Assembly (NCBI GenBank): GCA_963776425.1
Contig: CAVZMG010000002.1
Location: 609,650 to 673,649 of the forward strand
Direction: 5' to 3'
Length of the DNA stretch: 64,000 bases
Source: an uncultured Actinomycetes bacterium
GTDB taxonomy: Bacteria > Actinomycetota > UBA4738 > HRBIN12
Below the pieces are notes generated by a model. That model did no database searches. It had not been told where the DNA came from and worked only from the letters and a program-made list of their open reading frames with translations. The position numbers were made by a program, and so were the translations under genes. This document shows, piece after piece, positions 14,472 to 22,797 of the stretch. Each line of letters starts with the position of its first letter. Position 1 is the first letter of the stretch.

Positions 14472-15378
14472 ATGGCTACGGTGAGGCCGGATCAGGTTGA
14501 AGGGACCGCGGTGCACCGGACGTCCGCGTTCTTCTTCCGTCATCCGCGGTTGAAGCTCGGCGTCCTGTTGGGCGCCGCCGCTGGCGTGGTTCCTCGTCAT
14601 CTACCTCGGGGCGCTGGTCGTGTTGTTCTTCTCGGCGTTCTGGCACCTCGATGCGTTCAGCGGGCTGATCGTGAAGCAGTCCGCTCTCGCTCGTGAACTT
14701 CCAGAACGCTTGCTAACGACCCGGTGTATCGGACGATCGTCATCCGAACGCTCGGGATCTCGTTCGGGGTCATGATCACCGATGTCGTCTTGTCGTTCCC
14801 GCTCGCGTACTACGCGGCGCGTCTCGCGACCCCCAGGAGGCGCAACGTGATCCTGGTCCTCGTCGTGATCCCCCTCTGGGCCAACTACGTGGTCCGCGTG
14901 TTCGCTTGGAAGCTGATCCTCACCCCTCAGGGATTCCTCAACTGGCTGGTGCACTTCTCCGGCGCTCACCTGCAGATCGGGAACTCGAATTGGGCGATCT
15001 GGCTGACGTTCGTCTACCTGTGGCTCCCCTTCACGATGCTGCCGATCTTCGGTGCGCTCGAGCGCGTCCCGCCCTCGTTCCTCGAGGCCTCCAACGATCT
15101 CGGGGCGAAGGGGTGGAAGACGTTCCGGAGCGTCGTGTTCCCGCTGATCGTTCCCGGGATCGTCGCCGGCTCGATCTTCGCGTTCTCCCTCACGCTCGGG
15201 GACTACATCACGCCGCAGCTCGTCGGGAACACCCTGTTCATCGGCAACGTGATCTACGACGAGCGTCGGGGTCGCCAACAACGTGCCGTTCGCGGCGGCA
15301 TTCGCGTTGGTCCCGGTGGCGATCATGGCGGTCTACCTCTTGATCGCGAAGCAGCTGGGCGCGTTCGAGGCGCTCTAG
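14472..15378 (+). pseudogene. potB: polyamine ABC permease PotB-like, interrupted by about 4 frameshifts (or sequence errors)
   Basis: PotB-like sequence, co-linear with the intact paralog at 46996-47919, runs through frames 0->1->2->0 between 14570 and 14720. It then shifts again near 15262, so the C-terminal SVGVANNVPFAAAFALVPVAIMAVYLLIAKQLGAFEAL ends at a TAG about 15376. Confidence 0.6.
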
Positions 15379-15386
15379 GAGGACGG

Positions 15387-16234
15387 GTGGAGTCGAGGAT
15401 CGCGCGCGTGCTCATCAAGACGGGATCCGTGCTGACCATGCTCTTCCTCTACATCCCGCTCGCGATCGTCGTGGTGTACGCCTTCAACAACAGCATCGGG
15501 CAGAAGTGGCCGATCCAGAGTCTTCACGTCGCGGTGGTTCGGGGTGGCCTGGCACAACCCCGACGTCCGGACGGCTCTCGGCAACTCCGTGAAGGTCGCG
15601 ACCGTGGCGACGATCTTCGCGTTGCTGCTGGGGAGCGCCGGTCGCGTTCGCCGTTCATCGATACCGGTTCTTCGGGCGCAACGCCGTGTCGTTCCTGCTG
15701 GTGATGCCGATCGCACTTCCCGGGATCGTCACCGCGATCGCATTGAACTCTGCCATCAACAACTACAAGATCCCGTTCAGCCTCTGGACGATCATGATCG
15801 GGCACACGACGTTCTGCATCGTGGTCGTCTTCAACAACGTGGTGGCACGACTTCGAAGAACCCCAGGTTCGCTCGTCGAAGCCTCGGCGGATCTCGGCGC
15901 GGACGGGTGGCAGACCTTCCGCTACGTGACGTTCCCGGCCATCAGGACGGCGATCATCGCCGGGGCGCTGCTCGCCTTCGCGCTGTCGTTCGACGAGATC
16001 GTCGTCACGAACTTCACCTCTGGCACCCAACTCACGCTTCCGAAGTTCATCTACAACAACATCCGACAACCTCGGAACCGGCCGGTCGTGAACGTCGTGG
16101 CGCTCGTCGTCGTGCTTGCGATGGTGATCCCGGTGTACATCGCTCAGCGGCTCGCCGGCGCTGGACAGGCGGTCGGAGCCGCGAGCAGCGATGTCGCCAC
16201 GCCGGTGGAGGCGCTCGAGGAGGCGATGCCCTAG
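15387..16234 (+). pseudogene. potC: polyamine ABC permease PotC-like, interrupted by 2 frameshifts (or sequence errors)
   Basis: PotC N-terminus in the frame of 15387, middle part in the frame of the 15544 ORF, C-terminus in the frame of the 15686 ORF. Co-linear with the intact paralog at 47916-48821. Confidence 0.6.
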
Positions 16235-19157: not shown

Positions 19158-22100
19158 CCTCCTCCTTCCTCCTCGTCGCGCGCAGCCGGATCGGTCCCTA
19201 GTGCGGAGCGCTCGACGTTGGCGAGCTGCTCGTACAGGTGGTAGCGCGCGTCCACGTCCTCCTGCGCCTGCCGCTGCAGATGCCGCGGCGCGATCTGGGT
19301 CCGTCCGGCTGAGCATCGCGTAGCGCGCCTCCTTCGACGTGAACGTCTTGAGCGGGATCGATGGCCGCTTGCTGTCCAGGTGGAAGGGGTGCTCGCCGGC
19401 CTCGGCGTGCCGCGGGTCGAAGCGGTAGAGCGGCCAGTAGCCGCTGTCGACGGCTTCTTTCTGGTGGCTCATCGCCGTCGACATGTCGATCCCATGGGCG
19501 ATGCAGTGGCTGTAGGCGATGACGAGTGACGGACCCGTGGTGCGACTCGGCCTCGGACAGCACCTTCACCGTGTGGGGCATGTCCGCCCCCATCGCGATC
19601 TGGGCGACGTAGACGTTGCCGTAGGCGGTTGCGATCATGCCCAGGTCCTTCTTGCCGCTCGATTTCCCGGCCGCGGCGAACTTCGCGACCGCGCCGCGGG
19701 GCGTGGCCTTCGACGCCTGGCCTCCCGTGTTCGAGTAGACCTCGGTGTCGAGCACCAGGACGTTCACGTCTCGGCCGGACGCGAGCACGTGGTCCAGTCC
19801 ACCCGAAGCCGATGTCGTAGGCCCAGCCGTCCCCACCCACGATCCACACGCTCTTCGGCGTCAGCGCGTCGGCGACGGCCTCGAGGTTGCGTGCGGCCGC
19901 CCCATCCAGCCGGGAGAGGCGTTCACGGAGCAGCTCTACCCGCAGGCGCTGGAGCCCGATCTGCTCGTCCCCGCGAGCCGCGGCGCCGTCGTGCAGGCCG
20001 GCGACCAGGTTCAGGCCCAGCTCGTCCTCGAGCTCTTCGGCCAGTACTCGCGCCAGATCGCATTGGGCGTCGAGCGCGAGGCGCATGCCCAAGCCGAACT
20101 CCGCGTTGTCCTCGAACAGCGAGTTCGACCAGGCGGGTCCTCGCCCGTCCGGACCGACCGACCACGGCGTCGTCGGCAGGTTCCCGCCGTAGATCGACGA
20201 GCAGCCGGTCGCGTTCGCCACCAGCATGCGGTCCCCGAACAGCTGCGTGAGCACCTTGAGGTATGGGGTCTCGCCGCATCCGGAGCAGGCGCCCGAGAAC
20301 TCGAAGAGCGGCCGTAGCTGCTGCGATCCCTTCACCGTGTCCAGCGCGGAGGGACGTGCGGTCTGGATCCGGGATCCGCAGGAAGAAGTCGAACCACCTC
20401 CGCTCGTCCTCGACGTGTTCGAGCTTGGGCTCCATGTCGATCGACTTGTGCTTCACCTGCTCCTTGCTGTGCGCGGGGCACACGTCGACGCAGATGCCAC
20501 AACCGGTGCAGTCGTCGGGAGCGACCTGGATCGTCATGCGCATCCCAGGCTGTTCGCGCGACTTCCATTCCTTGTCCTTGAAGCCCTCCGGCGCCCCTTC
20601 GAGCGCGGCCGGCTCGAACACCTTCATCCGGATCGCGGCGTGCGGACAGACGAGCGCGCACTTCGCGCAATCGATGCAGATCGCCGGATCCCAGATCGGG
20701 ATCTCCCGCGCGATGCTCCGCTTCTCCCACCGAGCCGTGTCGGTCGGGAACGTGCCGTCCACGGAGAGCGCGGAGACGGGCAGCAGATCGCCCTCCCCGG
20801 CGATCATCTTCGCCGTCACCCGCTGGACGAAGCTCGGCGCCTCCTCGGGGACGGGCGGCCGGACGTGGTGATCGCTCAGGGAGTCGGCGGGAACGGAGAC
20901 CTCGTGCAGGGCGGCGACCGCGGCATCGACCGCGGCGAAGTTGCGAGTGAGGATGGTCTCTCCGCGCTTGCCGTACGACGAGACGATGGCGTCCTTGATC
21001 GCTGCGACGGCCTCGTCGACCGGCAGGACGCCGGACAGAGCGAAGAAACACGTCTGGAGCACGGTGTTGATCCGCGTGCCGAGACCGGCTTCCTTGGCGA
21101 TCGCGTACCCGTCGACCACGAAGAAGCGGAGCGCCTTCGCCACGATCTGCTCCTGGACCTCGGCCGGCAGGCGACCCCAGACCTCGTCGGGGCCGAACGG
21201 GCTGTTCAGCAGGAACGTGGCGCCGGGCGCCGCGACGCCCAACACGTCGGAGCGCTCGAGCCGCTCGAAGTCGTGACAGGCGACGAAGCTCGCCTGGTCG
21301 ATCAGGTACGTCGATCGGATCGGGCGAGGGCCGAACCGGAGGTGCGAGACCGTGACGGACCCTGCCTTCTTCGAGTCGAGGACGAAGTACCCCTGCGCAT
21401 AGAGTTCCGTGCGCGCGCCGATGATCTTGATCGAGTTCCGGTTCGCGCTCACGGTGCCATCGCTCCCCAGACCGAAGAACACCGCACGCACGACGTCGTC
21501 GGGCTCGGTAGAGAACGAGCGGTCGACCCGGAGGCTGGTGTTGGTGACGTCGTCGACGATGCCAACCGTGAAATGGTTCTTGGGCTCGTCGGCCTCGAGC
21601 TCGGTGAACACCGCCGCCGCCATCGCCGGCGTGAACTCCTTCGACGAGAGTCCGTACCGGCCGCCGATCACGTGAGGCATCCCACCGAGGAACCGGGTCC
21701 GGCCGGCGGCGACCTCCTCCGCGAGCGAGGTCACCACGTCCTGATAGAGGGGCTCGCCCGGCGCGCCGGGCTCCTTCGTCCGATCCAGGACCGCGACCCG
21801 CGTCGTGGTCGGGGGGATCGCCGCCACGAGGGCCTCGGGGGAGAACGGCCGGTACAGCCGCACCTTCACGGCGCCGACCCGTTCGCCGCGAGCGACGAGC
21901 GCTTCGACCGCCTCCTCGACCGCGCCGACACCCGATCCCATCAGGACGACCACGCGCTCCGCCTCGGGATGCCCGACGTAATCGAAGAGCCGGTAGGGTC
22001 GGCCGGTCAGCTCGGCGAGCCGGTCCATCGCGGACTGCACGGAGTCGGGCAGCTCCAGGTAGAAGGTGTTCGCAGCCTCTCGCGCCTGGAAGAAGACGTC

Positions 22101-22797
22101 CGGGTTCTGGGCCGAGCCACGGAGCACCGGGTGATCGGGGGTAAGCGCCCTCGCGCGGTGCGCGCGGACGAGCCGATCGTCGATCATCGCCCGGATGTCC
22201 GCGTCCTCGAGCGCCTCGATCTTGTCGACCTCGTGCGAGGTCCGGAAGCCGTCGAAGAAGTGCAGGAACGGGATGCGCGCCTCCAGCGTCGCGGCATGCG
22301 CCACGAGGGCGAGGTCCTGCGCCTCCTGGACCGACGACGCACAGAGCATCGCGAATCCGGTCGTCCGAGCTGCCATCACGTCGCTGTGGTCGCCGAAGAT
22401 CGACAGGGCGTGCGTGGCCACGGTTCGCGCCGCCACGTGCATCACGAACGGCGTGAGCTCACCGGCGATCTTGAACATGTCGGGGAGCATGAGCAGGAGC
22501 CCCTGGGAGGCCGTGAAGGTGGTGGCGAGCGCACCCCCTTGCAGGGCGCCATGGAGGGCGCCGGCCGCTCCGCCCTCGCTCTGCATCTCGATGACGTGGG
22601 GTATCGCTCCCCACAGGTTCGCGTGACCCGTCGCCGACCACGCGTCGGACAGTTCTCCCATCGGGGAAGAGGGCGTGATCGGATAGATCGGCGATGACCT
22701 CCGAGAGCCGGTGCGCCACGCGCGCAACAGCCTCGTTGCCGTCGACGGTCGCGTGGCGACGAACGGTGATATCGGAGCCCGATGTCAGGGTGTCCAC
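19154..22797 (-). pseudogene. nifJ: pyruvate:ferredoxin (flavodoxin) oxidoreductase NifJ/PFOR, interrupted by about 5 frameshifts (or sequence errors)
   Basis: PFOR is co-linear across five reading frames. MDTLTSGSDITVRRHATVDGNEAVARVAHRLSEVIA (22797 frame), then IYPITPSSPMGE...CPHAAIRMK...CTGCGICVDVCP (934-aa ORF). Next VKGSQQLRPLFEFSGACSGCGETPY (19469-20335), then [29 protein letters not shown] (19198-19836). Next [36 protein letters not shown] (18330-19484 frame), and finally a C-terminal frame ending EEEGGG-stop at about 19154. Confidence 0.65.

Follow-up and report, generated by a model that had tools for sequence, protein, structure and literature searches.

The 64,000-nucleotide stretch of DNA analyzed here (the window; contig CAVZMG010000002.1 of GenBank assembly GCA_963776425.1, from an uncultured Actinomycetes bacterium, with a GC content of ~68%) contains twelve frame changes, each equivalent to one extra base, in four genes: two permease genes of a putative polyamine-type importer operon (potB, four changes, and potC, two), the gene for a pyruvate:ferredoxin/flavodoxin oxidoreductase (PFOR, five), and a neighboring dihydroorotate-dehydrogenase-family gene (DHOD-like, one). 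These frame changes are real in the sequence, yet they are almost certainly not a real biological feature. They very probably represent localized consensus insertion error in a long-read-only assembly, with all four genes intact in the organism. The lesions are clean +1 insertions in genes that have no other damage and no excess divergence, and among related loci the identical lesion type is specific to nanopore-only assemblies, where it strikes essential genes as well.

The frame changes were called by the phase of GC content at third codon positions (GC3), by codon-model Viterbi segmentation, and by tblastn with intact orthologs from related loci (given L numbers below), and all three approaches agree. 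At every junction that tblastn split into separate pieces, the flanking high-scoring segment pairs abut or overlap by a residue, meaning that the window holds exactly 3n+1 bases there with no residue lost, and that the events are insertions and not two-base deletions. Three close potB sites and the site at the PFOR N-terminus needed base-removal scans together with nucleotide alignment to be resolved. The extra bases were placed to within a few nucleotides by scanning every possible single-base removal against the orthologs, together with nucleotide alignment to the related loci L161 and L162 (Table 1). The direction is the same in 12 of 12 events (two-sided binomial p = 0.0005), and the chance of twelve random events all falling within these 6.4 kb of ~57 kb of coding DNA is ~4e-12. 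Viterbi segmentation of the full 64 kb recovered all 12 sites and found no further frame change on one strand in the middle of an open reading frame (ORF). An earlier sequence-only reading of the window had counted twelve insertion-type shifts in these genes and had described every other long gene as intact, and both statements held up; what it described as five successive frames in PFOR are six frame segments, with five shifts. Site 2 is four nucleotides longer than in all relatives, corresponding to one extra codon plus one base. This site thus carries one extra residue compared with all five aligned orthologs besides the frame shift, and may combine a natural codon with a 1-nt error or represent a single 4-nt error.

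Table 1. Genes of the affected locus and the twelve frame-change sites, in window coordinates
Feature	Positions	Strand	Description	Basis
potA-like ABC ATPase	12027..13145	+	intact; aligns to orthologs in a single frame	Pfam ABC_tran + TOBE_2
potD-like solute-binding protein	13142..14410	+	intact	Pfam SBP_bac_8/1/6
potB-like permease	14472..15378	+	4 insertion-type shifts; corrected ORF 300 aa	tblastn; Pfam BPD_transp_1 (corrected protein)
potC-like permease	15387..16234	+	2 insertion-type shifts; corrected ORF 281 aa	tblastn; Pfam
Bacterial proteasome activator (Bpa)	16231..16728	-	intact, between both patches	Pfam PF10759
M20 peptidase	16746..18095	-	intact, between both patches	Pfam
DHOD-like gene	18119..19157	-	1 insertion-type shift; corrected ORF 345 aa	Pfam
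Single-chain PFOR	19154..22797	-	5 insertion-type shifts; corrected ORF 1212 aa	tblastn; full Pfam domain set
Site 1 (potB)	14569..14574	+	net +1, within GGGCGCCGCCGC	base-removal scan; nucleotide alignment to L162
Site 2 (potB)	14679..14695	+	4 extra bases, CCGC, at 14681-14684	nucleotide alignment
Site 3 (potB)	14704..14706	+	+1, cagaAcg	base-removal scan; nucleotide alignment
Site 4 (potB)	15261	+	+1, extra G between gac and agc; 10 bases upstream and 5 downstream identical to L162	
Site 5 (potC)	15516..15524	+	net +1, best removal 15521/15522	
Site 6 (potC)	15638..15643	+	+1	
Site 7 (PFOR)	22689..22691	-	+1, plus strand gatcGgcgatg vs gatc-gcgatg in L161; 10 bases either side identical to L161	
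Site 8 (PFOR)	20341..20346	-	+1	
Site 9 (PFOR)	19801..19807	-	+1	
Site 10 (PFOR)	19536..19538	-	+1	
Site 11 (PFOR)	19279..19290	-	+1	
Site 12 (DHOD-like N-terminus)	19034..19036	-	+1	

Removal of one base per site yields uninterrupted ORFs without stop codons for potB, potC, PFOR, and the DHOD-like gene (300, 281, 1212, and 345 aa, respectively), and the orthologs of these genes measure 297, 285, 1196, and 345 aa in L162 and 302, 287, 1213, and 345 aa in L161. A protein search with the corrected PFOR returned two database proteins that are 90% identical to it, P0001 (1213 aa) and P0002, covering 100% and 97% of its length. It was only through this search that the closest relatives found, L161, L162, and L163, were reached; scans of genome and metagenome contigs with the M20 peptidase, which served as the anchor for gathering related loci, found no conspecific sequence, the best matches having 67% and 74% amino-acid identity. 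The corrected proteins resemble their relatives as closely as the relatives resemble each other: identities to two relatives versus between those relatives were 89.0 and 89.9% versus 89.0% for PFOR, 92.2 and 91.9% versus 93.3% for the DHOD-like protein, 71 and 57% versus 56% for PotB, and 69 and 64% versus 62% for PotC. PFOR and the DHOD-like gene are in fact the most conserved genes of the neighborhood.

Lineage-specific amino-acid substitutions were also counted three-way, comparing the window branch with two relatives. The window has 48 unique PFOR substitutions (61 and 49 in the relatives), 22 in PotB (24 in L162 and 65 in L161), 24 in PotC (29 in L162 and 44 in L161), and 15 in the DHOD-like protein (10 and 11 in the relatives). 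Across the four genes this count gave no substitution excess on the window branch, and thus no sign of the relaxed constraint expected under pseudogene decay. Apart from the extra bases, the four genes are without trace of decay. The orthologous loci agree, in that the close orthologs are single-frame and intact at all of the shift positions.

In order to place the lesion among relatives, an all-against-all tblastn census of frame changes was run over 160 related loci from genome and metagenome collections, in which an event was accepted only with at least two independent supporting loci. Nine of these loci come from Microflora Danica (MFD) metagenome-assembled genomes (MAGs), whose assembly used nanopore reads alone (Flye, then a single Medaka round), without short-read polishing (PMC12313526). 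The nine MFD loci contain 18 events in 122 kb of testable sequence (fifteen +1, one +2, one +4, and one -1), and the other 151 loci, comprising short-read MAGs, isolates, and JGI contigs, contain four events of mixed sign in 795 kb, giving rates of 0.147 versus 0.005 events per kb (p = 7e-13). The MFD events are distributed over four loci (one in L001, eight in L003, eight in L009, and one in L012), they strike different genes in each MAG (potA, potD, PFOR, M20, and others), and their contexts are likewise non-homopolymer. The MFD authors themselves acknowledge nanopore-associated errors at lower coverage (PMC12313526). L003 (MFD05176.bin.1.125) and L009 (MFD09964.bin.2.60) are GTDB representative MAGs with ~8 insertion-type frameshifts each in ~16 kb of testable sequence, and a portion of the PFOR in L003 aligns at just ~42%; these two representatives are thus locally poor in consensus quality.

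A second line of evidence comes from L162 and L163, two Flye-style ENA assemblies from different samples that represent one sister species and are 99.5% identical. These two sequences differ by seven single-base indels in 23.6 kb, and in six of the seven it is L163 that has the additional base. Five of those six disrupt genes (two hits in argS, and one each in a response regulator, M20, and a pyrD-like gene) and the sixth is intergenic, with every gene broken in L163 being intact in both L162 and L161. The split argS and the hit in the neighboring response regulator lie at L163 6493-8279, corresponding to L162 6495-8575. As argS is essential, its lesions in L163 cannot be real. The indel contexts in L163 are non-homopolymer, like those of the window, and the indels between the two assemblies sit in stretches richer in single-nucleotide polymorphisms (SNPs) than the background (8.4 versus 4.6 SNPs per kb, P ~ 0.03), which hints at locally poor consensus or strain heterogeneity. 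The sole extra base in L162 relative to L163, at L162 position 9247, falls 3 nt before the start codon of PNPOx and extends the gene call from 207 to 243 aa, and is an example of an intergenic insertion error altering a gene call. The same lesion is therefore present in nanopore-only relatives, including in essential genes, and not in short-read ones, which makes it almost certainly a sequencing-consensus artifact and not gene decay.

Within the window, the events form two dense patches, at 14.57-15.64 kb (six events) and 19.03-20.34 kb (five events), with a further event standing alone at 22.69 kb. A gene border runs through the second patch, which covers the DHOD-like N-terminus and the PFOR C-terminus and leaves 2.3 kb of PFOR clean. 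Between the patches, an intact stretch of 1.9 kb could have arisen by chance (p ~ 0.07 at 1.45 events per kb). The description of the shifts as confined to two functional gene groups was therefore misleading, as the events are positional patches that cross gene boundaries. Nor did the GC homopolymer or repeat runs that the sequence-only reading offered as a possible cause bear out: a check of all 12 sites found none overlapped by a homopolymer of more than 3 nt, GCC/GCG-rich repeats only at sites 1 and 12, and no shared motif, slippery sequence, or hungry-codon or stop-codon context. At some sites the flanks match a relative on both sides and the extra base is unlike either neighbor, as in c|G|a at 15261. 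No near-identical paralog that could act as a source of read mis-mapping or mis-polishing exists in the window, the potC match to the second pot operon being only 69% over 233 nt. The gaps between successive sites of the second patch (19034-20343) measure 246, 257, 265, and 539 nt, each near a multiple of about 256; L003, L009, and L163 did not show this spacing, which may be a coincidence or a polisher windowing effect.

These observations are best accommodated if extra single bases were introduced during consensus building of the contig, for which a nanopore metagenome assembly of the Flye/Medaka type would be the likeliest source; the window probably originates from a nanopore-only assembly. 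The errors would fall in the two short low-quality patches, about 1.1-1.3 kb each, plus the one isolated site, and low local read support or strain heterogeneity may lie behind the patches. The one-directionality would be a failure mode of this assembly and polishing chemistry in high-GC DNA, presumably with an algorithmic cause, and potB, potC, PFOR, and the DHOD-like gene would all be functional in the organism. A length bias in the same direction has been reported for a 67% GC actinobacterium: of three strains, two (TL110 and TL29) gave R10.4.1 native-DNA Flye assemblies 6-21 bp longer than the reference, with 21-34 excess coding sequences, and with PacBio RSII both of these strains assembled 8-11 bp short of the reference (PMC11649196). 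The indel errors of the nanopore-only (Flye + Medaka) MFD MAGs are alike in that single-base frameshifts fragment conserved genes, are patchy within contigs, and follow the assembly and not the lineage, being present in MFD loci L001, L003, L009, and L012 and in L163 and absent from short-read relatives. Published accounts blame residual nanopore errors mainly on long homopolymers and low coverage (PMC9262707, PMC12313526), and the errors seen here differ in being almost exclusively insertions and in lying outside homopolymers.

Several points weigh against consensus error as the explanation. The sequencing platform and coverage for the window are inferred only. Twelve errors in 8 kb, set against zero in the remaining ~50 kb of coding DNA, call for a local cause, and the window has no near-identical paralog that could supply one. 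The affected genes belong to two dispensable functional units, which are also expected targets of real gene loss. Finally, a literature search found no description of an insertion-only, non-homopolymer error mode for the Flye/Medaka pipeline, leaving support from the literature indirect.

The sequence-only reading had left the choice between consensus errors and genuine pseudogenes produced by an insertion-biased process, and the corrected ORFs, the census, and the L162/L163 comparison support the former and leave the latter unsupported. Genuine, very recent pseudogenes would mean that polyamine-type ABC import and the PFOR/DHOD-like function were lost through insertion-biased mutation, for example by mutagenic end-joining that adds single nucleotides or by a mutator polymerase, which we consider unlikely. 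Ku/LigD end-joining is common in Actinomycetota and is able to insert single nucleotides, and the lesions are present in the sequence and strike two dispensable units while potA, potD, and M20 are intact. As in known bacterial pseudogene decay, multiple frameshifts occur in recognizable genes that are co-linear with intact orthologs. Such decay also brings mixed indel signs, nonsense mutations, larger deletions, and accelerated substitution, however, and here there are none; the 3.6-kb PFOR gene took five hits and yet has no nonsense codon, no deletion, and no surplus of amino-acid replacements along the window branch. Indel spectra in bacteria contain both signs and lean toward deletion, whereas all 12 shifts here are net +1 and the corrected ORFs contain no stop codon. 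The hits are distributed by position and not by gene, clustering in patches that cross gene borders, and the identical lesion type turns up in other genes of related nanopore-only assemblies, essential argS among them, compared to the four mixed-sign events elsewhere. It is very unlikely that the extra bases are real in the stronger sense of a soil actinomycete lineage inactivating its PFOR/DHOD-like and polyamine-type permease genes by strongly insertion-biased, locally clustered mutation. If this were true, such inactivation, for example by repeated rounds of mutagenic end-joining or along the track of a targeted error-prone polymerase, would oppose the usual deletion bias of bacteria.

Within the artifact explanation, a plausible though not especially likely sub-mechanism is a consensus chimera of at least two co-assembled close strains, with the polisher adding a base wherever reads align discordantly. 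The patchiness in the window would fit this, as would the SNP density around the L163-versus-L162 indels, roughly double the background, but several L163 insertions have no adjacent SNP. For most sites in the window, there are two different neighboring bases around the codon third position of which either can be removed with the same outcome, as if wobble-SNP alleles had been emitted side by side; about 80% of random insertions would look alike by our estimate, so this pattern does not discriminate and was dropped as a test. Programmed recoding, by +1 ribosomal frameshifting or transcriptional slippage at each site, would account for all shifts needing the same direction of correction, and a +1 correction would restore frame as it does in frameshifting of the prfB type. 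Unlike in prfB, there is no conserved shift site, in-frame stop, shared upstream Shine-Dalgarno-like stimulator, or ortholog conservation, and the close orthologs (L161, L162, L084, L085, L004, and others) are all single-frame at these positions. With neither a common motif nor conservation across the 12 sites, programmed recoding is effectively refuted.

With consensus insertion error as the preferred explanation, the conclusion is the reverse of what naive annotation would give: the PFOR/DHOD-like pair and the potABCD-type importer most likely both work in this organism, and it would be wrong to count their genes as pseudogenes or metabolic losses. Some public long-read-only MAGs, including the GTDB species representatives L001, L003, L009, and L012, carry patchy, insertion-only, non-homopolymer frameshift errors. 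Such errors can fragment essential genes, as for argS in the ENA contig L163, inflate pseudogene counts, and depress pathway completeness, and homopolymer-aware filters would miss them. The value of this case lies in the caution it provides for the annotation of long-read-only MAGs.

Gene order across the locus is fully syntenic with related Actinomycetota MAGs. The pot operon encodes, by Pfam, an ATPase with ABC_tran and TOBE domains, a periplasmic-type binding protein, and two BPD_transp_1 permeases, making it a potABCD-type importer with a putative polyamine-type substrate. Between the potD stop and the potB start, at 14415-14451, there is a strong GC-rich hairpin with a 15-bp stem (fold of -46.9 kcal/mol, z = -4.7 versus shuffles), and L162 has hairpin-capable sequence at the matching position. 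Possible roles for this hairpin are termination or attenuation within the operon, or control of mRNA stability to set the ratio of binding protein to permease.

The corrected 1212-aa PFOR carries the Pfam domains POR_N, PFOR_II, POR, EKR, two [4Fe-4S], and TPP_enzyme_C in one chain, and this domain set, the chain length of about 1200 aa, and the 90% identity to annotated PFORs make it a single-chain enzyme of the NifJ/PFOR type. The PFOR stop and the DHOD-like start share an ATGA overlap at 19154-19157. The two genes are adjacent in the sequenced relatives that retain PFOR (L002, L003, L010, L084, L092, and L161-L163), and the 1566-aa database protein P0063 combines the PFOR domains and PF01180 in a single chain, which suggests a functional partnership between PFOR and the DHOD-like protein, unless the P0063 fusion is itself a frameshift artifact.

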